Shown here: positions 2,205-15,250 of the stretch, piece by piece
Layout of the letters: each line of letters opens with the position of its first letter
Numbering within the stretch: the stretch's first letter is position 1
NCBI GenBank assembly: GCA_018865545.1
Contig: GCA_018865545.1_3633.2
Source: a phage
DNA: 54,480 nucleotides
Reading direction: 5' to 3' (one strand)
Position numbers and translations under genes: made by a program
The notes under the pieces: generated by a model
The model's database searches: none
What the model was told of the DNA's origin: nothing
Seen by the model: the letters and a program-made list of their open reading frames with translations, nothing else

Positions 2205-3029
2205 ATGACAAGTATTTTACACACGACAGGTATTTTACCACACTATCAGAAGGACTATTCTTTCCCTGATTTATCTGGGGATATGTTGCAAATATACGAC
2301 AAAGTGCAAGGCGAAGTGTCGGAGCTACAGTTTAGTTCAGACCCTGATGATGAGCAAGAGTTTGATAAACAGATTTGTCGTGTAGAAAACGAGCTTATAG
2401 AGCTACAATCATTAGCCAAATCAACAGATATCGAAGACTTAAGGCGATACGTAGAGAATCTTGAAAACTTAGTGTTCGGGCTTTCGCAAGCTATTATAAA
2501 CATTGGCGAAATTGCTAAAGTTGCGTCTGACAAGTTGCCAGACAACACAGAAGATATTGAAGAAGCGTTGCAGAATATCTGCTATGAAGGAAGCTCTGCT
2601 CTCGGTTGTGAATGTAGCTTAGGCACTGCCCTCGAAGAACGTGGGTGGAGCCTAGCCCAAAAAACTTTTGTTTATCTTGTTATTGGTGGTGAGTTCCCAC
2701 GACTCTTACAACTTAATGCCCTTTTTGGAAACAGTCAGAGCGATAATATTGCATTAGGTATTGATGGTTGGTTCTGCTTAAGAGGTAAAGAATTAACATT
2801 TTGTCGTGGCGATGATGTGTTAATTCTCAATGCTTCTAAACCTGGTGTTGGAATAACAGTAAGACTTAATGGTAAGTCCACTAATTTCCACACCACAGAA
2901 TTGACAGATATTTTTATGGACATATTCGATCCTACAGAAGACGAAATTCTTATGTATGAAATGACCAGTGGAAAAAGGTATGATATTTTGTTGTGGAGAA
3001 ATATTTTCGGTAAGAAGAAAAGTTTATAG
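2205..3029 (+). CDS. hypothetical protein
   Basis: 274-aa ORF, weak RBS; no motif recognised. Confidence 0.45.
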   Translation: MTSILHTTGILPHYQKDYSFPDLSGDMLQIYDKVQGEVSELQFSSDPDDEQEFDKQICRVENELIELQSLAKSTDIEDLRRYVENLENLVFGLSQAIINIGEIAKVASDKLPDNTEDIEEALQNICYEGSSALGCECSLGTALEERGWSLAQKTFVYLVIGGEFPRLLQLNALFGNSQSDNIALGIDGWFCLRGKELTFCRGDDVLILNASKPGVGITVRLNGKSTNFHTTELTDIFMDIFDPTEDEILMYEMTSGKRYDILLWRNIFGKKKSL

Positions 3030-3285
3030 TATGATATTTTATCGCTGATATTTGTTTTCCCTGTGATATTTTTGTCACAGGGAAAGTTTCAACAACAGAT
3101 ATTTTCTTGATACTTTAAAACTCTACCAGAATTTAAAATTCTGTAAATTTAGAAAACTATTACTTATAAGCGTTTCGACACAATTTTGTTATGAAAGCCT
3201 TGTTTTTATATAAAAACCTGTTTTAGCATGAGTGGTAGGATCACACTCCATACTACCTTTATTCCTACAGATGAGCACCTCCATG

Positions 3286-3500
3286 TCCGAAAACTCGGTT
3301 CTCGATCGAAAATTCATTTTCCAGATCGTATTTGCTCCTTACGGAGAAAATTTTTTAGGGCTACAAATTTCAGTTCTCGATCAGTTTTTCGATTTCAAAA
3401 TCGTATTTGTTTTTTCTTGCGAAAAATTTCGCACGCTCAGTTCTCGATCGAGTTTTCAAAATCGAAATCGTATTTGCTCTATAGCGCGAAAAAATTTTTA
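3286..3500. repeat. three tandem ~68-bp direct repeats (iteron-like), core GTTCTCGATCG...AAATCGTATTTG
   Basis: Direct inspection: units starting near 3286, 3361 and 3428 share GTTCTCGATC(G/A), TTTTC, AAATCGTATTTG and GCGAAAAAATTT blocks. Confidence 0.6.
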
Positions 3501-3881
3501 TGGGTATCATAATTCTATCACACACTTAAACGCAAAGCAACATAAAAATTTTTGTTGAATGATAATCATTCTCATTTGCAGAATGACAGGTAGGATCGGT
3601 GTCTTATCCTCCCCCGTTGACCATCGTCGCCGTAGTTTGAAGTTTATAGCCGTTCTCGGCTTATCTCTTTGTTAGATATAGATTAACATAATTGATAAAG
3701 AAAGCAAGCGTTAATTGTAATCTTTACGTTTCTTTACAAATTTATTTTTGACGAGTTACCGGCGATCGACCTTCCAACCAGCGCCCTGGTATGTTAGCCC
3801 CGCCTTTACGCCGTGGGGATGGCGTTTCCTCTTCTGTATGTGAAACATTATAAGCCCGACCCCCGGGCTTGTCAAACATTT

Positions 3882-4148
3882 TTATTGTTTATTTTCTTGC
3901 CAGGTTAGGACACCTAGCCAGAAATGGCAATCACCTTTCGCCCATTGTGGTATATTGCTTTCTTTCCCACCTTCCCGCGCCCAGGAATAACCGCCCGTGT
4001 AACTTTGCAATTGATAACTATCCTCGACCTTATAATCTGACAGGCTGAGAACTGTTTCTACCTTTAAGCCCGTTGCGCTCGCTACCTGGTGGATAGTTCC
4101 CCCTTGCCAGCCTAACGCGTGCATAAGGTGCAATGTGGTCGTGGTCAT
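3882..4148 (-). CDS. hypothetical protein (isolated minus-strand gene)
   Basis: 88-aa ORF; AGGA RBS 9 nt upstream; possible divergent promoter TTGCCT-16-TATAGA; hairpin GCCCGGGGGTCGGGC downstream. Confidence 0.4.
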   Translation of the reverse strand: MTTTTLHLMHALGWQGGTIHQVASATGLKVETVLSLSDYKVEDSYQLQSYTGGYSWAREGGKESNIPQWAKGDCHFWLGVLTWQENKQ

Positions 4149-4224
4149 TTTTTCTATTCCTCTGTTAGTTGGCTAGTTGTTAAAATTATATCTATAACCA
4201 GCCAGGTTAGCAAGGCAAATAAAA

Positions 4225-4280
4225 GAGAAAAATTTTTTAAAAATAGTATTGACAGCTAGGTAGTATAGATCTACTATGTA
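4225..4280 (+). promoter_or_regulatory. sigma70-like promoter TTGACA-17-TACTAT with AT-rich upstream element (repeat copy 1)
   Basis: TTGACA at 4249-4254, TACTAT at 4272-4277; identical copy at 9289-9317. Confidence 0.55.
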
Positions 4281-4332
4281 CACATCAAGGCGATACACCG
4301 CCACCAACCAACCTAAAAAGGGGTGAATTAAT

Positions 4333-4956
4333 ATGAAAACCATCGTTAACGCTGAGAATGTATCTTTCGATAAGTTGAGCGACGCACAAAAAGAAAAAGC
4401 CATTGATCTTATTCGTGAGCGTGAAAGAGAAAGTAATAATGATTTCTTTGCTGATAGTGTCATTGAAGACTATAAGAATGACATTTTGCCAGAGTACGGG
4501 ATCGATGACGCGGTTATCTATTGGTCAGGATTCTGGTCGCAAGGCGACGGCGCATCAATCAGCACTGACCGCGTGGATATTGAAAAATTTTTAAGAAAAG
4601 TTAAATCTTTAACAAAATTCAGAGGGATCCGCAAACTATTTGATCTCGGTGAATATAGTCCGTTATATGCAAGCATTGAGCGGGATAATTACAGCCGCTA
4701 CCACCATGAAAATACTGTTTCCGGTTACGTTGACACTATGTATTGCGGCGATTTAACGGCAAAGCAGGAAGATTTGACCAATCAGCTTGAAAACTTGTTA
4801 ACTGAAACGATCCGCGATCTGTCTTGTAAACTTTACAGAGATTTAGAATCAGCCTACGATGACCAGTTTACAGATGAAGCCATCACAGAATCAATCGAAG
4901 CCAATGATTATCGTTTTGATATTGATGAAGATGGAAAAGTTTACGCTATCGCTTAA
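4333..4956 (+). CDS. hypothetical acidic early protein
   Basis: ORF track; AAAGGGG RBS; shares its first 8 codons (MKTIVNAE) with the gene at 9373. Confidence 0.6.
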   Translation: MKTIVNAENVSFDKLSDAQKEKAIDLIRERERESNNDFFADSVIEDYKNDILPEYGIDDAVIYWSGFWSQGDGASISTDRVDIEKFLRKVKSLTKFRGIRKLFDLGEYSPLYASIERDNYSRYHHENTVSGYVDTMYCGDLTAKQEDLTNQLENLLTETIRDLSCKLYRDLESAYDDQFTDEAITESIEANDYRFDIDEDGKVYAIA

Positions 4957-5046
4957 AAGTACTTGCATTCAGTTTTAAAATAGTACTATACTACTACAAC
5001 AACAGGACGGGGAACCGCTCCCCGTCACATTCAGGAGATCATCAAA

Positions 5047-5265
5047 ATGGCTAATATCCGCACATTGTTAAAAAATGCAAAGCAAGTTTTATTTTCTGAC
5101 GACGAATATTTTAATTGCAATATCAAAGGCGTTCGGAACATCGAGGATGTAAAGGATTTATTTGGAATAAAAGGTAATGTATATCGTAAAGGGTTACACG
5201 GCAATCATCTTGAATATAAGTTAGCTGATAGTGATTATAATTTTACTTTGACAATTATTTCATAA
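5047..5265 (+). CDS. hypothetical protein
   Basis: ORF track; AGGAGA RBS; preceded by GC hairpin 5006-5028. Confidence 0.5.
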   Translation: MANIRTLLKNAKQVLFSDDEYFNCNIKGVRNIEDVKDLFGIKGNVYRKGLHGNHLEYKLADSDYNFTLTIIS

Positions 5266-5330
5266 AACCACTTGCAAAGTTATATAGTCCTGTTATACTA
5301 CCAACATTGACAAACGAGAGGTAAATAAAA

Positions 5331-5687
5331 ATGGCAATCCAGGCAATCATGTTAGAACTTACAGACTTCCGTAATACTGTAAAAAATTTAACCAAAAAAC
5401 AGGTTGATAATATTATCAACGGATACCGTAGCAAGATTAAAGATCTTCCGCTTAAACGCGATCAACATGCGGCTAATATGATGCTTGACGCTATGATCAA
5501 AAAGATGATTCAGTGCGATCTTACTCTGGCTTATGAATACGCTGGCGATCTCTTTGTAACGTATAATAAGCCAGTGCCAGGCATGTGCACCACGGAAGAA
5601 TTGCACGCCCTGAATCTAAAACAAGATGCATGGGATAATATGCGCCGCGTTATGGTGTGGGCAGAAAGCGGTAAAATTTATCAATAA
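5331..5687 (+). CDS. hypothetical protein
   Basis: ORF track; GAGAGG RBS; upstream TTGCAA-16-TATACT promoter-like sequence. Confidence 0.55.
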   Translation: MAIQAIMLELTDFRNTVKNLTKKQVDNIINGYRSKIKDLPLKRDQHAANMMLDAMIKKMIQCDLTLAYEYAGDLFVTYNKPVPGMCTTEELHALNLKQDAWDNMRRVMVWAESGKIYQ

Positions 5688-5689
5688 AG

Positions 5690-5735
5690 ATAGTTGTCTT
5701 TTAGTTATGCCGTGGTAGAATACACGGCATAGATA
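5690..5735 (+). promoter_or_regulatory. promoter TTGTCT-16-TAGAAT with palindrome ATGCCGTG/CACGGCAT flanking the -10
   Basis: Direct inspection; near-identical element at 10280-10325. Confidence 0.45.
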
Positions 5736-5763
5736 AGAGAAACTACTTATCAGAGTTTAAAAG

Positions 5764-5982
5764 ATGAAAAATATTACGGGTAAAACCGAGCTATTAAAGG
5801 CGCTTTCTGTCGGTGAGTCAGCTTTATGGGTATGCGAAAAAGATCGCCTACCGTCGCGTGAGATGGCCTTGTTTAAGGCTTTATCTTTGAAGCTGAAAAT
5901 TAAATTATCCCAAAAATTAGCGGTTGTTGCCGCACCTGGGGAAACTGCTTTCAGTGTCGTAATGGTTAAAAGGTTGGAGTAG
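5764..5982 (+). CDS. hypothetical protein
   Basis: 72-aa ORF downstream of the palindromic promoter; weak RBS. Confidence 0.4.
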   Translation: MKNITGKTELLKALSVGESALWVCEKDRLPSREMALFKALSLKLKIKLSQKLAVVAAPGETAFSVVMVKRLE

Positions 5983-6067
5983 AAAAAATTAAAAATTATA
6001 TTGACAAGCAAAACAGCAAAAATTAAACTTACACACAGTTAAACAAACAATATTAACGAGGTAAATC

Positions 6068-6439
6068 ATGAAACAGTTAACCGCTTCCCAAAAAGCAATG
6101 ATCCGTGAGTATGTTTTAAACTCTCTTTCTTTCGATATTGAATCGGGTAGCGAGCAAGATCAGATCAAAGAATTAAAAAACCGATTTGAATCTGAATACT
6201 GGTACGATAGCAACAAGAAACGCTATCAAAATGATAAAGTACAAGGCCTCAAAAATTGGTTGCAAGGTTTGCCGAGTGGTGTTAATATCGATTTCACTTA
6301 TTACGATATTGAGCAACGCCTTAAAGATTTTGGGGTCATCACCGAGACGACCAGAGAAAACACTATTGAAAAATATATCTCTGAGTGGTGGGATCTGGTA
6401 GCGCCGTTTTATGCTGGGCTAATCGTCAACTTAAAATAA
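6068..6439 (+). CDS. hypothetical protein
   Basis: ORF track; GAGG RBS; upstream TTGACA-17-TAAACT. Confidence 0.55.
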   Translation: MKQLTASQKAMIREYVLNSLSFDIESGSEQDQIKELKNRFESEYWYDSNKKRYQNDKVQGLKNWLQGLPSGVNIDFTYYDIEQRLKDFGVITETTRENTIEKYISEWWDLVAPFYAGLIVNLK

Positions 6440-6516
6440 TTATTGCAAACTATCTAAAACTGGTTTAAATTAAAGGGAGTGAGTTTATCACTCCCAACAT
6501 GAAAGAGGTTAATCAA

Positions 6517-6828
6517 ATGAATAGTTATTTTGCTACTCGTTCACTTGCACGCATTGCAGCGAAAGAAACAGGCGGCAAAGTTTTAGATAATGGTAAAGAT
6601 GCGCCTATCGGTAAACGTTGGCAGGTTATCCCTGGCTATGTTGTTGAAGCCGTCCAGGATACAGCAAAACAACGCGCCGAGATGGAGAATAAACCAGTAG
6701 TTACCTTGTCCATTGCTAAGCGTAGCAATGTAGCGAATCAAGCCCGTAAGGCGCTTTATTACGCCATCAATTACGCAAAAAATAATAAAATTGTTCCAGT
6801 TTATCATAAGCGTTCATTTAAGAAATAA
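6517..6828 (+). CDS. hypothetical protein
   Basis: ORF track 6499..6828; start moved to ATG6517 behind AAGAGG RBS; hairpin 6473-6493 upstream. Confidence 0.5.
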   Translation: MNSYFATRSLARIAAKETGGKVLDNGKDAPIGKRWQVIPGYVVEAVQDTAKQRAEMENKPVVTLSIAKRSNVANQARKALYYAINYAKNNKIVPVYHKRSFKK

Positions 6829-6897
6829 TTTTTAATTAGATAAAAAGCGCCCTAAGAAATGGGCGCTAAACAAAAACACTTAAAGAGGTAAATTATT

Positions 6898-7248
6898 ATG
6901 GCCAGCATTGTAGAAGTTTTCAAAAAAGCCGTAGAAAATAAAAACGCTGAATTGTCTTTAGTATCTCTGGATTTTACTGATGCTTACGGTAACACTTATT
7001 TTGTTTACGAGCTTGCTTTTACTTGTCCTGAATTGAAAACATGGGAAACATTGCATAAATCTCGCGATCTGCAATATGGATATGGCGATCACGTTTTAAC
7101 TGTTGCAATGAAAGACCTTGCAATCATTACCGGGATGGGATCGGACGCTGTATATATTACCCGTTGGGCACACGATAACGATTTAAAAATCAGTGTCAAC
7201 AAGCGCACCAATTGCCGCAAAAAAGATCTAAAACAGTTCATCGCTTAA
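6898..7248 (+). CDS. hypothetical protein
   Basis: ORF track; AAGAGGT RBS; hairpin AGCGCCC..GGGCGCT upstream. Confidence 0.55.
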
Positions 7249-7264
7249 TCATCCTGGTAGCTGT

Positions 7265-7615
7265 ATGATTCAGTTTTATATAATCATCGCGGCGCTTGCA
7301 ATTTATTTAGGATTGCATAAAAAAATATTTAGATTGATTCTCTGGTTTTACTACGAATACAGGATCAGAATGGTTTATCACTATATCGAATACTCTTTTC
7401 ACGGTGAGAGATACCACACCAGAAGATCCGGCCCATTAAATGATCTTGAGGGCAACGGTTTAATCTGTGAGGTTAAAAAGCGTGGCGGTAAAATTCTTTA
7501 CCACAAAGAGGGTACTTTTGATTATATTGATGACGTGATTAATTTTAGGCAGCAAGCCGTTGCAGATCACGCCAGCAAAATAATCAACGGCAGCTATAAA
7601 CGCAAAGCGGGGTAA
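7265..7615 (+). CDS. hypothetical protein with N-terminal transmembrane segment
   Basis: ORF track; hydrophobic N-terminus IIIAALAIYLGL; weak RBS. Confidence 0.4.
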   Translation: MIQFYIIIAALAIYLGLHKKIFRLILWFYYEYRIRMVYHYIEYSFHGERYHTRRSGPLNDLEGNGLICEVKKRGGKILYHKEGTFDYIDDVINFRQQAVADHASKIINGSYKRKAG

Positions 7616-7616
7616 T

Positions 7617-7799
7617 ATGCGGAATTTTGAAAAAATTGTTAAGGCTAATCGTCTGGAATATGGGGAAACAGACGAAAAACGGGAACGGGTAGGCAAACGT
7701 CACAAACCTAAAAAGGTTCCGAAATTGTGGTGTCCTGATAAATACGATCACAAATTAAAACAGCGTATCGCTGAAAAACAGCGACTTAACGCAAGATAG
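7617..7799 (+). CDS. small basic protein
   Basis: ORF track; Lys/Arg-rich; followed by intrinsic terminator. Confidence 0.4.
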   Translation: MRNFEKIVKANRLEYGETDEKRERVGKRHKPKKVPKLWCPDKYDHKLKQRIAEKQRLNAR

Positions 7800-7804
7800 C
7801 AGAC

Positions 7805-7830
7805 AAGGCCGGATAGTTCCGGCCTTTTTA
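7805..7830 (+). terminator. rho-independent terminator
   Basis: Hairpin AAGGCCGGA-TAGT-TCCGGCCTT followed by TTTTT. Confidence 0.6.
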
Positions 7831-8016
7831 GTGCCTGGCAGCGCCTGTAACGATTAAAAAGGCCAACGGTGGCGTGATGCACCACAAAATAAAATAGCTC
7901 GCCAGAGAGCTTTTTAGAGGCCTTAAAATCGATCCGAAAAATATTGATAAAAAATGCTTGCAATGCTTTCCAGATACTGATAGTGTTACTTCAACAAACA
8001 AAACGAGGTAACGGCA

Positions 8017-8154
8017 ATGATCGAAGTTCTTAAAAATCCTATTTTGTGTGGTATGGTTGTTTCTGTACTACTCCCGATCTCGCTGTTAGTCGTTAGCGAA
8101 ATAGATGATTTTCTTTTCAATAAAAGACTTGCCAACAAGTCAAAAACAAATTAA
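8017..8154 (+). CDS. small hydrophobic peptide (45 aa)
   Basis: Not in ORF track (under 60 aa); ACGAGGT RBS 7 nt before ATG8017; hydrophobic core ILCGMVVSVLLPISLLVV. Confidence 0.3.
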   Translation: MIEVLKNPILCGMVVSVLLPISLLVVSEIDDFLFNKRLANKSKTN

Positions 8155-8191
8155 TATAGTATCAGCATACTAACTAGCGAGGTGATTTAAT

Positions 8192-8410
8192 ATGTTTGGT
8201 TTTATTGTTCTATCTTGTTCTCTTTCTGTCACTGCTGCAAAGGTAGAATGTAACTACACTGTAAAAGAGACTTTTAATGATGAAAAGTCTTGCAATGCAT
8301 ACGAAAATAATTATAAACTAGGAGACGGGGAGCAGTTCGGGATCTGTGATGAATTAAAAGACGGGATCAAGAAAGGTGATAAGCGCCCGATCCTAGTCCT
8401 GAAAAAATAA
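8192..8410 (+). CDS. small secreted protein (putative signal peptide)
   Basis: ORF track; GCGAGGTG RBS; N-terminus MFGFIVLSCSLSVTAA resembles a signal peptide. Confidence 0.5.
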   Translation: MFGFIVLSCSLSVTAAKVECNYTVKETFNDEKSCNAYENNYKLGDGEQFGICDELKDGIKKGDKRPILVLKK

Positions 8411-9264: not shown

Positions 9265-9320
9265 GTAAAAAATTTTTTAAAAATAGTATTGACAGCTAGG
9301 TAGTATAGATCTACTATGTA
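9265..9320 (+). promoter_or_regulatory. sigma70-like promoter TTGACA-17-TACTAT (repeat copy 2)
   Basis: Part of the 130-bp perfect direct repeat 9268-9397 = 4228-4357. Confidence 0.55.
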
Positions 9321-9372
9321 CACATCAAGGCGATACACCGCCACCAACCAACCTAAAAAGGGGTGAATTAAT

Positions 9373-12790: not shown

Positions 12791-12821
12791 TCTCTTACAA
12801 CCGCACAAAGTAAAATTGTAC

Positions 12822-12850
12822 AAGGGGCGCATTAAGCGCCCTTTATTTTT
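12822..12850 (+). terminator. rho-independent terminator ending the plus-strand cluster
   Basis: Hairpin GGGGCGC-ATTA-AGCGCCC followed by TTTATTTTTG. Confidence 0.6.
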
Positions 12851-13235
12851 GCCCTAACAAGTATGATAAGTTTTATCTATCAAAACACCACACAGAAAAA
12901 AGTGAATAAAACGCGGTATCGAGCTAAACGAGGGCAGACAATACAACGGCAAGGCTGAACATTTAAGGCCGTTATAACGCGATTCAGGCCGCTTAAAATC
13001 GATCCCCACCACGAACAACCCCCACAAAATGACTAAAACGACACAACATGACCTAAATGATAACCATTATCAATAACATAAGCATTTTTATGCGTTTTTA
13101 GTGAATATCTATTTAAATGATAATGACTCTCAACAACAAACTAACACGACCGAAGCGATTTAATCGCCTACCACAAAATTAATCATTTGTAAAGAACAAT
13201 TTAAAAGCTGCGTAAGTGGCGCGACCGTAGGGAGC

Positions 13236-13460
13236 GACACAATAACGCAGTAGTAACCCCTCCCCTCACTCCTTACAGTCGCCCGGTATCGGGCTAGCGT
13301 TATTATGTCGCTACGCGCCAACGCGTTAACAATTTTGCAAAGAAGCCTGCTTTGCAGGTTAAGCGCATTGCGCTTAATCGCGTAGCGACTATGTGAAATT
13401 ATAACAGTTAAATTATTAATAAAATCTTGCAAAATTGTTAACCTACTGCGTTATTGTGTC
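13236..13460. repeat. nested and interleaved inverted repeats
   Basis: 18-bp perfect IR GACACAATAACGCAGTAG (13236-13253) / CTACTGCGTTATTGTGTC (13443-13460); 16-bp IR 13325-13340 / 13427-13442; 11-bp IR GTCGCTACGCG / CGCGTAGCGAC; palindrome TTAAGCGCATTGCGCTTAA. Confidence 0.7.
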
Positions 13461-13849
13461 CGGTACGGATTAGTTACGTATGTAACTAACAACTAACGTT
13501 GCTAAATTGTGTCCTGTATATAATTCGTTAAATTAACCAAATTAATCCCCGATTATTACGCAGTAAATCACCTGCTTTTAACCCTGTTAATGTGCCACGT
13601 AGTGATCTGCTATCTTGCCCAGGGATAACCGCATGGCATGCGGTTAAATGCTGTTAAGTGCCTGAAATGCCAGATCAATTTAGTCACTGCGTGATTATGA
13701 TTGCGACAATAATTTGCTTATGATTTGTTATGCTTTGTTATAATTTGCTATTTATTTGTTAAACACTCTTTTATCTTTCCTCTTTCATTTTTGTTATATT
13801 TGATTTGTTATCGTTTTCTTCCGTTTCATTTCGTTATTGAAAACAAGAA

Positions 13850-15250
13850 TTATTATCATTCATGTGCCTTAACAGGCTGGCAGGTCTGTTAGTGGTCTGG
13901 TTCTCTGTGTGGTCATGTGATGGCTGGCTTAGTAGCTTGGTTTTATTGTCTGGCCTGTTATTGTTAGCTTGCTTGTTGTTGTGTGGTGTATGTATCAGTT
14001 AGCTAGTGTATGATCTGGTGCGCATAACGTGTATTATGTTAAATCACTAAGCCCACAAATAAGGTGGCTTGTCAATAACAATAAGTGCTGTGTGCGGTAG
14101 TCTGGCCCATCAGTGCGCCCCTTTGTTGTGTGGTGCTCTCAGTGTGTGACCTGTCTGCTGTGTGCGCTGCGCCAAATCTCGAGCGGTTCTCGATCACAAT
14201 AGCTGTAAGATATTTTGTAAAGATTCGTAGTTTTTCTTGACACCCACAATCGTCCGTCTAACCCTTCAGAGATTTATCTGTGATTTTTACCCTTCAGAGA
14301 TAAATACAAACTATGAGCTACATCTGCCACAAGCATACCTGCCATGTCACATCACTAATCTTGCAAGGATATTTCTGTAAGTGAACCTGCACACAATGCA
14401 GCACGCGTCTTGTTGTGTGGGGAGGGTGGGGTAACAATCAGGAAGTGGTGTGGCTGTGATAACGTATTGGATAAAAACTCTGGCTGGCTTGTCGATGATA
14501 TTTGTGTGGGGAAATGCTGATGGGTAAGATATAAGACACTTGTCTCCGGCAGGGGTGGGGTGTGGAAAAGAAATGGGCCTGTCCGACCCATTGTGATATA
14601 GAAATGAAATGGCCATCTCACCATTGACCAGGTAAGCCAATATCAAGGCCAAATTCGTGGCACTCATCCCAGTCAAGACTTTGATTCCAGTTTGTAACTG
14701 TCCTCTCTGTGTGGTGGGTGTATGATGCTCTCTGTGACTGCTTTGGCATCTTTTTTGTCTGAGATTTCCCGAAAAGAGGTGTGTTGTCATTGAGTCTTCC
14801 GGCAGCCTTTTCACCCTTTTTGACTTGTCTCCCACAGGCATTCCACTGCTCCAGTGTCCTGTAACACATAAAATCATTCTCCTGTAATATCTGGTGTGAG
14901 GATAATGACAGATTGTATCAGATGCGTCAAGTCTGTTGACCAGAGTGTGTGGGGAGTGGTGTCGTTATAAAAAAAAATTTTAGGGAGCTTTCCATGACTT
15001 ATTCTGTGGCTTCAGCAAGGCCATAAACCCAGATGTGGCGGGGCTTTCAGCTATGTTGTGTGTTGATCGCAAACAAGGATAAAATAATCAATATAAATGC
15101 AGATAAATGTTGTTTTATTGTGTTTGTGTAACTGGGGTGTCGTGTCTTGATAGGTTATGACCTGTACATATTTTGTACAATTGTGTGGTGTGCAGAGTTT
15201 GGGTGGCAATTCCCCAGACGGGGCAGGGTAGGTTATGGTGGAGAGCAGGG
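13850..15250. repeat. GT-skewed non-coding region with recurring TGTGTGG(G) motifs and G-tracts
   Basis: Direct inspection: TGTGTGG-like motifs near 13975, 14125, 14412, 14446, 14503, 14556, 14707, 14945, 15181; GGGGAGGGTGGGG at 14419-14431. Confidence 0.5.

Follow-up and report, generated by a model that had tools for sequence, protein, structure and literature searches.

The window analysed here, a stretch of phage DNA 54,480 nucleotides (nt) in length, is a scaffold of an Avunavirus (Av-05-like and rV5-like, Vequintavirinae) and covers 54 kb of a genome of approximately 134 kb. A megablast search with positions 3030-4330 gave full-length matches of 95.5-95.6% identity to Escherichia phages Av-05, 18-1-2, 19-1-2, 24-2-1, and vB_EcoM_TH18; phage 18-1-2 is classified in the Vequintavirinae, genus Avunavirus. 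This region carries an array of three direct repeats, followed by a Fur-box-like palindrome that overlaps a candidate promoter (Table 1). The complete TH18 genome (133,882 base pairs [bp]) is 98% identical to the window over the array stretch and has the array at 83.16-83.37 kb, approximately 3.2 kb into a block of small plus-strand genes that begins at the divergence point at 79.4-80.0 kb. The genes flanking the array encode proteins of 274, 88, and 207 amino acids (aa). The first-pass annotation had placed the repeats in a 1.3-kb non-coding island, but the truly non-coding stretch around the array is shorter (approximately 3030-3881): positions 3882-4148 are a real minus-strand gene, which encodes the 88-aa protein, matches phrog_19316 (E = 1.5e-54), and contains an HTH-like segment, TIHQVASATGLKVETVLSL.

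The 88-aa gene and the non-coding DNA 3' of it (3700-4148) share 80-91% nucleotide identity with Phapecoctavirus and Dompiswa phages, which belong to another subfamily. blastn finds no such gene in Mydovirus or Seunavirus, and the small minus-strand gene at this position in these genera looks unrelated by eye; the sharing with another subfamily and the absence by blastn from these two genera suggest module exchange. On the minus strand, a perfect sigma70 consensus (TTGACA-17-TATAAT) at 3875..3847 overlaps the terminator hairpin of the 88-aa gene, and a promoter-like site with a variable spacer can be seen by eye at the same position in relatives. Further along this strand, approximately 110 nt (3840..3730) are conserved and contain a hairpin with compensatory changes (pair 72/94 is AU in six sequences and GC in six), making this a candidate small RNA without an Rfam match. 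At the other side of the array, at the 3' end of the 274-aa gene and just past it (2907-3098), lie six of the 12 plus-strand GATATTT copies of the window. Similar clusters are found in the same place in relatives, often followed by three or four copies of AAATGGTTTTC and three of TTATCTCAAA, and a second small GATATTT cluster is present in the window at 14209-14497. One promoter cassette (A/T tract, aaaaatagta, TTGACA-17-TACTAT, and an identical leader) occurs at both 4228-4310 and 9267-9350, where it matches over at least 80 nt and precedes two different early genes; it recalls the mobile promoter cassettes of T4-type phages.

A repeat search recovered the array as a three-copy direct family (3294-3356, 3369-3431, and 3436-3498) with 67-75% identity between copies. 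The three tandem repeats described previously are thus real, but their periods are 75 and 67 bp rather than approximately 68 bp. Tandem Repeats Finder, when run on the window, missed the array because its units are too divergent. Each unit contains an exact copy of box A (GTTCTCGATC), an exact copy of box B (ATCGTATTTG) 17 nt past box A, and an A/T tract approximately 12 nt past box B. Box B starts differently among the units, with AGATCG... in unit 1 but AAATCG... in the other two. The unit consensus consists of GGTwCTCGATCG (box A), a T5C block, aTCGTATTT (box B), and an A6T5 tract. The core had also been reported to recur near 14177. A copy is indeed present in that region (Table 1), but it is box A alone, lacking box B, and is not exact in TH18; in the homologous stretch of Klebsiella phage KPP-1 it is not kept as box A, and the GATATTTTGTAAAGA motifs that follow it are also present in the island around the array.

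Table 1. Features of the array and its surroundings in the window, with the spacing of the same elements among related phages.
Feature	Position or distance	Strand	Details
Repeat unit 1, 75 bp	3295..3369		box A GTTCTCGATC 3298-3307, 17-nt spacer, box B ATCGTATTTG 3325-3334, A/T tract AAAATTTTTT 3347-3356
Repeat unit 2, 67 bp	3370..3436		box A 3373-3382, box B 3400-3409, A/T tract AAAAATTT 3422-3429
Repeat unit 3	3437..3507		box A 3440-3449 within 10-bp palindrome CTCGATCGAG, box B 3467-3476, A/T tract AAAAAATTTTT 3489-3499, then conserved GGGTAT
Linker, array to promoter	3508..3543		sequence varies among genera, length constant
A/T tract AAAAATTTTT	3544..3553	+	directly 5' of candidate -35
Candidate promoter, overlapped by Fur-box-like palindrome	3555..3584	+	TTGAAT (3555-3560) - 18 nt - CAGAAT (3579-3584); TTGAATGATAATCATTCTCATTTGCAGAAT
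Lone box A copy GGTTCTCGATC	14185..14195	+	GATATTTTGTAAAGA 13 nt on; no box B; large non-coding region
Unit 1 to unit 2	74-76 bp		phages compared
Unit 2 to unit 3	66-71 bp		phages compared
Unit 3 box A start to first Fur-like box	118-121 bp		9/12 phages measured

The array is conserved well beyond the genus. Sensitive blastn searches found it in six Avunavirus records and, collinear and at approximately 75% identity, in Mydovirus, Seunavirus, and (with a second query) Henunavirus. In Klebsiella phages (Mydovirus), similarity to a 521-nt query (3180-3700) is limited to 3289-3612, again at approximately 75% identity, and of all stretches within 3030-4330, the array and the Fur-like box were found to be the most conserved. 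An alignment of eight arrays from four genera is collinear and contains few indels, and the 24 units of these arrays align without gaps over 72 columns, with conserved blocks at columns 3-11 (GGTwCTCGA), 17-21 (TTTTC), 33-39 (CGTATTT or TGGATTT), and 53-63 (A6T5). The array of rV5 (Vequintavirus) has diverged: its three units are spaced at 65 and 74 and keep the geometry of box A, 17 nt, and box B. Recognizable versions are also found in Serratia phage ChuuTotoro and Pectobacterium phage POP18, and the Phapecoctavirus nepoznato has three AT-rich units of other sequence in the same place. Between genera, the product of the adjacent 274-aa gene shares 27-40% amino acid identity; considering this weak identity beside the conservation of the array, the non-coding array is more constrained than its coding neighbour. 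Three Avunavirus genomes show seven differences in 341 nt, none of them within boxes A or B; one changes tract AAAAATTT to AAATTTTT with its length unchanged. Judging from these alignments, the array DNA is evidently under purifying selection, though non-coding.

Units are more alike within a phage (identity 0.77) than between phages (0.68-0.70), which indicates concerted evolution. The E. coli phages among these viruses (Avunavirus, 4MG, rV5, and Phapecoctavirus) bear different versions of the boxes, which by this comparison appear to follow phage lineage rather than host. In Avunavirus, the unit 'heads' (box A, spacer, and box B) look rotated with respect to other genera, unit 1 resembling their unit 3, unit 2 their unit 1, and unit 3 their unit 2, while the unit 'tails' and spacings remain positional; the pattern, which comprises few nucleotide differences, suggests recombination or gene conversion between units. 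The Dam GATC site of box A is lost in Erwinia phages. TH18 encodes a Dam-like DNA N6-adenine methyltransferase at 104,903-105,583, so the GATC sites of box A may be methylated by the phage. A permutation test for 10-11-bp periodicity of conservation along the unit was not significant (p = 0.16).

A unit profile built from these 24 units (eight phages, four genera) matched the window solely at the three units (E = 4e-13 to 7e-18; next best E approximately 1) and matched the TH18 genome (133,882 bp) at three places only. With three matches and no more in either sequence, the units do not form a promoter class dispersed over the genome. A 21-base double-unit pattern gave 59 single matches in 185,579 bacterial species genomes; these are scattered over unrelated, largely high-GC taxa, with none in Enterobacterales, and therefore provide no evidence for a homologous array in bacteria. 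A loose two-box pattern gave only chance single matches in IMG/VR. Searches of E. coli chromosomes and plasmids did not find the array either, except in one 137.6-kb 'plasmid' record, CP057073.1, whose Fur-box match and size suggest an rV5-like phage. Records named 'Campylobacter phage' (C12, A142, and others; approximately 135-143 kb) likewise carry the rV5-type Fur-box region; these records and CP057073.1 are probably mislabelled rV5-like coliphage genomes.

Two open reading frames (ORFs), 3228..3512 and 3232..3558, cover the array, and one or both could in principle encode a genuine repeat-containing protein. In most phages the plus strand has frames that run through the array without a stop, several GenBank records list a hypothetical protein at this position (e.g. 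PVP-SE1 ORF 202 and Mydo gp054), and part of ORF 3228..3512 matches phrog_25933, a small PHROG of unknown function (E = 3e-12); the match of the overlapping ORF is marginal (E = 0.003). Neither ORF matches Pfam, however, and the codon phases of the boxes differ from phage to phage (1,1,2; 2,1,1; 2,1,2; 2,0,1; 1,2,2; and 1,0,2). Even the close relatives KB57 and Mydo differ in phase because of a 1-nt indel in an A/T tract of the array, the periods of 75 and 67 bp place successive units in different frames, and in rV5 no frame is open across the whole array. That two plus-strand frames are open simultaneously points to composition rather than coding. The first-pass annotation had regarded both ORFs as artefacts, a view that these comparisons bear out, and we find a genuine protein at this position scarcely credible. 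Since no reading frame is conserved, we do not assign ORF 3228..3512 to phrog_25933. The array is routinely annotated as a hypothetical protein; ORFs over it, and phrog_25933 with them, are best treated as spurious.

Alternatively, the array could be transcribed and its RNA could, as a sponge or decoy, sequester an RNA-binding protein or endoribonuclease, either as a type III antitoxin mimic or, via A6U5, as an Hfq sponge. ToxN-type cleavage occurs at AA^AU sites, which the A-run and following U-run of every unit resemble. The Vequintavirinae also offer a precedent: in phage ΦTE, pseudo-ToxI repeats neutralise ToxN (PMC3475682). Upstream of the array, a weak promoter-like sequence (TTGTTT-18-TAGCAT) is present at 3200-3229, but it is not conserved among relatives. 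Rfam searches of the array returned nothing at the gathering threshold or at E values up to 5. Folded together, the eight arrays reach a consensus energy of -5.7 kcal/mol (289 columns) and the covariation term is unfavourable (+0.75), and single-sequence fold z-scores are not significant (-0.42 for the plus strand and -1.45 for the minus strand): the array RNA has neither a conserved fold nor covariation. Its units are 67-75 nt in length and 67-75% alike, whereas those of type III antitoxins are 34-45 nt and near-identical. There is no toxin gene and no terminator context, the 3' side being occupied by the Fur-like box, the promoter, and further non-coding DNA, and a gap-free geometry maintained over genera would be atypical of an unstructured RNA. 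In unit length and identity, in fold, and in promoter-terminator-toxin context, the array thus departs from type III antitoxins and pseudo-ToxI repeats, and a function as RNA decoy seems improbable.

Other RNA-related candidates were discarded. Homology to pseudo-ToxI was rejected, as a ToxI query matches other loci only. The same query has at least 90% identity to 200 phage records, 163 of which are Klebsiella phages; antitoxin-mimic repeats may accordingly be far more widespread than the lone ΦTE case. Record OY757067.1 has tRNA genes and HNH pseudogenes annotated over the array (3023-8379), which prompted us to consider tRNA remnants. ARAGORN finds no tRNA in that stretch or in the window, and the annotation of the record therefore appears to be shifted relative to its sequence. 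A CRISPR-like array was also rejected: the 'repeat' interiors vary, and the 'spacers' share the A/T tract and are conserved between phage genera.

The DNA downstream of the array contains the candidate promoter and the palindrome. An A/T tract similar in kind to that preceding this promoter is also found before the sigma70-type TTGACA promoter-like sites at 4228, 9267, and 11258. The putative promoter at 3555-3584 matches 8/12 hexamer positions, under the threshold of the promoter scanner, and its -10 varies among phages (CAGAAT, CTGAAT, or CGGAAT); a search for a consensus fold in the RNA just 3' of it found none. A sigma70 scan of 3290-3500 detected no site within the array. Tandem sigma70 promoters were rejected as an identity for the repeats: with TATTTG as the -10, the -35 position reads TCGAnn, and the unit is absent elsewhere in the genome.

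The core of the palindrome (TGATAATCATTCTCA, 3560-3574) has one mismatch to the 7-1-7 core TGATAATnATTATCA (13/14), and the 19-mer at 3555 matches the Fur consensus GATAATGATAATCATTATC at 15/19 positions. A 15/19 match alone is near chance genome-wide, with an estimated three or so sites; within the 134-kb TH18 genome, this box is the site that matches best. The palindrome is a perfect 9-1-9 one in Seunavirus and Henunavirus (AATGAGAATCATTCTCATT), and more than 240 records, those of Vequintavirus and Phapecoctavirus among them, share its 45-47-nt core at 84-95% identity. By sequence it is this adjacent palindrome, not the repeats, that qualifies as a Fur box, and it overlaps the candidate promoter; binding of Fur to the 3555-3584 box is predicted. 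In some genera (KB57, 4MG, POP18, and nepoznato) the box is present in two to four tandem copies with a 29-bp period. Where a phage has two or three boxes, the promoter-proximal one is displaced by 29 or 58 bp, so that array and promoter do not keep a conserved helical phase; this speaks against a face-of-helix activator. The distance separating the array from the first box, on the other hand, is constant (Table 1), which suggests that the array and the Fur-like box act together. Nothing in the literature searched connects rV5-like phages with Fur boxes, the repeats described here, or a mapped origin, and it holds no transcript or binding data for this subfamily.

We tentatively favour the reading that the array is a phased composite protein-binding array and makes up, jointly with one or more Fur-like boxes, a control region upstream of the conserved candidate promoter. 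It had been proposed that the repeats are initiator or regulator binding sites, and protein binding at the DNA level does fit best with gap-free units and the lack of an RNA fold, though the repeats are not iterons in the strict sense (see below). A sequence-specific protein would occupy all three modules, which stand at fixed distances from one to four Fur-box-like palindromes over a candidate sigma70 promoter, and the A6T5 tract of each module would serve as a bend or UP-like tract. The likeliest occupant would be a phage-encoded early protein, possibly aided by a nucleoid protein that recognizes the A-tracts. This occupant and host Fur, the latter on the neighbouring box or boxes, would together build a nucleoprotein complex that sets the activity of the 3555-3584 promoter and possibly shields it from the upstream early operon.

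As to the binder, a phage protein or a DNA-shape reader is likelier: the boxes track lineage, the Fur-like box is nearly constant, and the units of one phage resemble each other, all of which is more in keeping with a phage protein co-evolving with the boxes, or with gene conversion, than with a sequence-specific host factor. Searches of the island for host-factor sites (DnaA, IHF, the oriC 13-mer, and an H-NS nucleation motif) found none, and resemblances to the sites of Lrp, TrpR, SlmA, and PurR were considered and judged too weak. Pfam searches of approximately 28 early-region proteins gave no recognizable DNA-binding domain, and Pfam and PHROG searches of the flanking genes and approximately 25 further early ORFs gave no Rep or DNA-binding assignment. 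The product of the 274-aa upstream gene, which co-occurs with the array clades (70 records), was rejected as binder: it is acidic, has a weak, sub-threshold match to a coiled-coil-type Pfam family (EzrA), and is missing from rV5, which keeps a diverged array. Against the 88-aa HTH-like protein as binder, blastn finds none in Mydovirus or Seunavirus, which keep the array.

A more specific proposal is that this is a dedicated sensory region, in which a lineage-specific triple array and a ladder of host Fur boxes allow iron status and a phage factor to gate a small regulatory RNA or the start of replication; we consider this rather unlikely. If the control region does read host iron, how well these phages perform in the gut or in infected tissue could depend on the iron available there. 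Phages of the Vequintavirinae and of Phapecoctavirus are widely isolated for use in therapy and biocontrol, and their early regulation and replication origin are undefined.

The main rival to the control-region reading, and a weaker one, is that the array serves as all or part of a replication origin. A phage initiator or helicase loader would then bind to the modules, the A/T and T-rich blocks would unwind, the promoter would activate or prime replication through an R-loop, and Fur would couple the process to iron. Adjacent promoters provide transcriptional activation or an R-loop primer at T4 oriF and oriG and at the primary origin of T7, and a candidate promoter adjoins this array as well. 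As a cis element the array occurs once in 134 kb of genome, and in relatives several families of short repeats are crowded into the same 850 bp (three to six GATATTT, three or four AAATGGTTTTC, three TTATCTCAAA, and three 70-bp units). GATC is enriched 4.6-fold in the array of a phage that encodes a Dam-like methyltransferase, but the GATC of box A is not conserved in Erwinia phages. Several further properties weigh against an origin. Positions 3000-4340 contain no DnaA box (with up to one mismatch), IHF consensus, or oriC-type 13-mer. AT content is only mildly raised in the array (34.9% GC, with a window background of 39.5%; 31-35% GC across the 3000-4340 region), no Rep- or initiator-like gene is adjacent, and the replication genes of TH18 are approximately 60 kb away. 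The GC-skew switch in the window, at approximately 15 kb (about 12 kb from the array), lies where plus- and minus-strand genes converge and follows transcription; in rV5, too, the skew changes only where the direction of transcription changes, and the origin of rV5-like phages is undefined (PMC3606486). The units, moreover, are three to four times as long as classical iterons. For the label 'iteron-like' used in the first-pass annotation, the strict sense of iteron is not supported: these are composite modules of 67-75 bp with a conserved part of approximately 60 bp, without an adjacent initiator, DnaA or IHF sites, or an unwinding element, whereas classical iterons are direct repeats of approximately 17-22 bp, usually in helical phase. 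An origin at this position is accordingly a possibility that we rate as low.

Repeated sites for terminase, with bends, are also a feature of lambda cosB (R1-R3) and of pac sequences, and the three repeated sites with bends described here resemble that architecture. The array could then be a packaging or genome-end site bound, for example, by the small terminase. Box A and GATATTT recur together at 14185-14215, and the homologous region of KPP-1 overlaps its reported 514-bp direct terminal repeat. This terminal repeat (116,316-116,829), however, is approximately 8.5 kb from the KPP-1 array (125,116-125,472), the terminase genes of TH18 are approximately 16 kb from its array, and Vequintavirus genomes, in which the array has diverged, are reported to be circularly permuted. 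We regard a packaging role as very improbable. Records that start near the island (e.g. EC152) were considered as possible genome ends and dismissed, as the break looks arbitrary and there is no terminal redundancy.

The region around the lone box A has features of its own. A 1.5-kb non-coding stretch (12800-14350) lies where the plus- and minus-strand gene blocks converge; it contains Fur-like cores at 12864, 13058, 13118, and 13844, 4.8 copies of ATTTGTTATG at 13712-13761, and, at 14185-14223, the lone box A plus GATATTTTGTAAAGA. In Klebsiella phage KPP-1, the counterpart shares the GATATTTTGTAAAGAT motif and has six Fur-like cores in 750 bp; the direct terminal repeat of 514 bp reported for KPP-1 overlaps it (PMC9862379). 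This second large non-coding region with clustered Fur-like boxes probably lies near the genome terminus.

While the array is apparently undescribed so far, it is of a kind already known, that of tandem binding-site arrays. With the iterons of lambda ori, P1 oriR, pSC101, and R6K, it shares non-coding direct repeats at a single locus, a conserved copy number, an AT-rich neighbourhood, and GATC; it differs in having 67-75-bp modules in place of 17-22-bp sites and in lacking an adjacent initiator, DnaA or IHF sites, and a strongly AT-rich unwinding element. F-plasmid sopC and lambda cosB R1-R3 similarly combine long units, a short recognition core, few copies, and fixed spacing. sopC consists of 12 units of 43 bp, each with an inverted repeat; in the phage array, box A of unit 3 forms a palindrome of 10-12 bp in several phages, but the palindrome is not a conserved feature of units 1 and 2 or of the Erwinia phages. 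Unlike sopC and cosB, the array is found in a virulent phage without a partition system and away from the reported genome end. The tandem repeats of ΦTE pseudo-ToxI also occupy a non-coding stretch in an rV5-like (Vequintavirinae) phage, but they lie at another locus, and consist of 36-nt near-identical units that form a structured RNA; no sequence similarity to them was found in the array. A further parallel is the upstream activating architecture of strong promoters, as in rrnB P1, with three Fis sites and an UP element, and in curved A-tract DNA: in the phage, too, three phased A/T-tract modules lie upstream of a promoter. The phage modules differ in being approximately 100-290 bp upstream, in carrying the specific boxes A and B without a Fis or IHF consensus, and in a phasing that shifts by 29 bp in some genera. 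The palindrome, for its part, resembles the Fur-repressed promoters of enterobacteria, such as that of aerobactin iucA: it matches the core at 13/14 positions, overlaps the candidate -35 and -10, and contains AATGAGAATCATT, which is present in the iucA site as well. Unlike iucA, the predicted box is in a virulent phage, occurs in some genera as tandem copies with a 29-bp period, and is coupled to a triple array.
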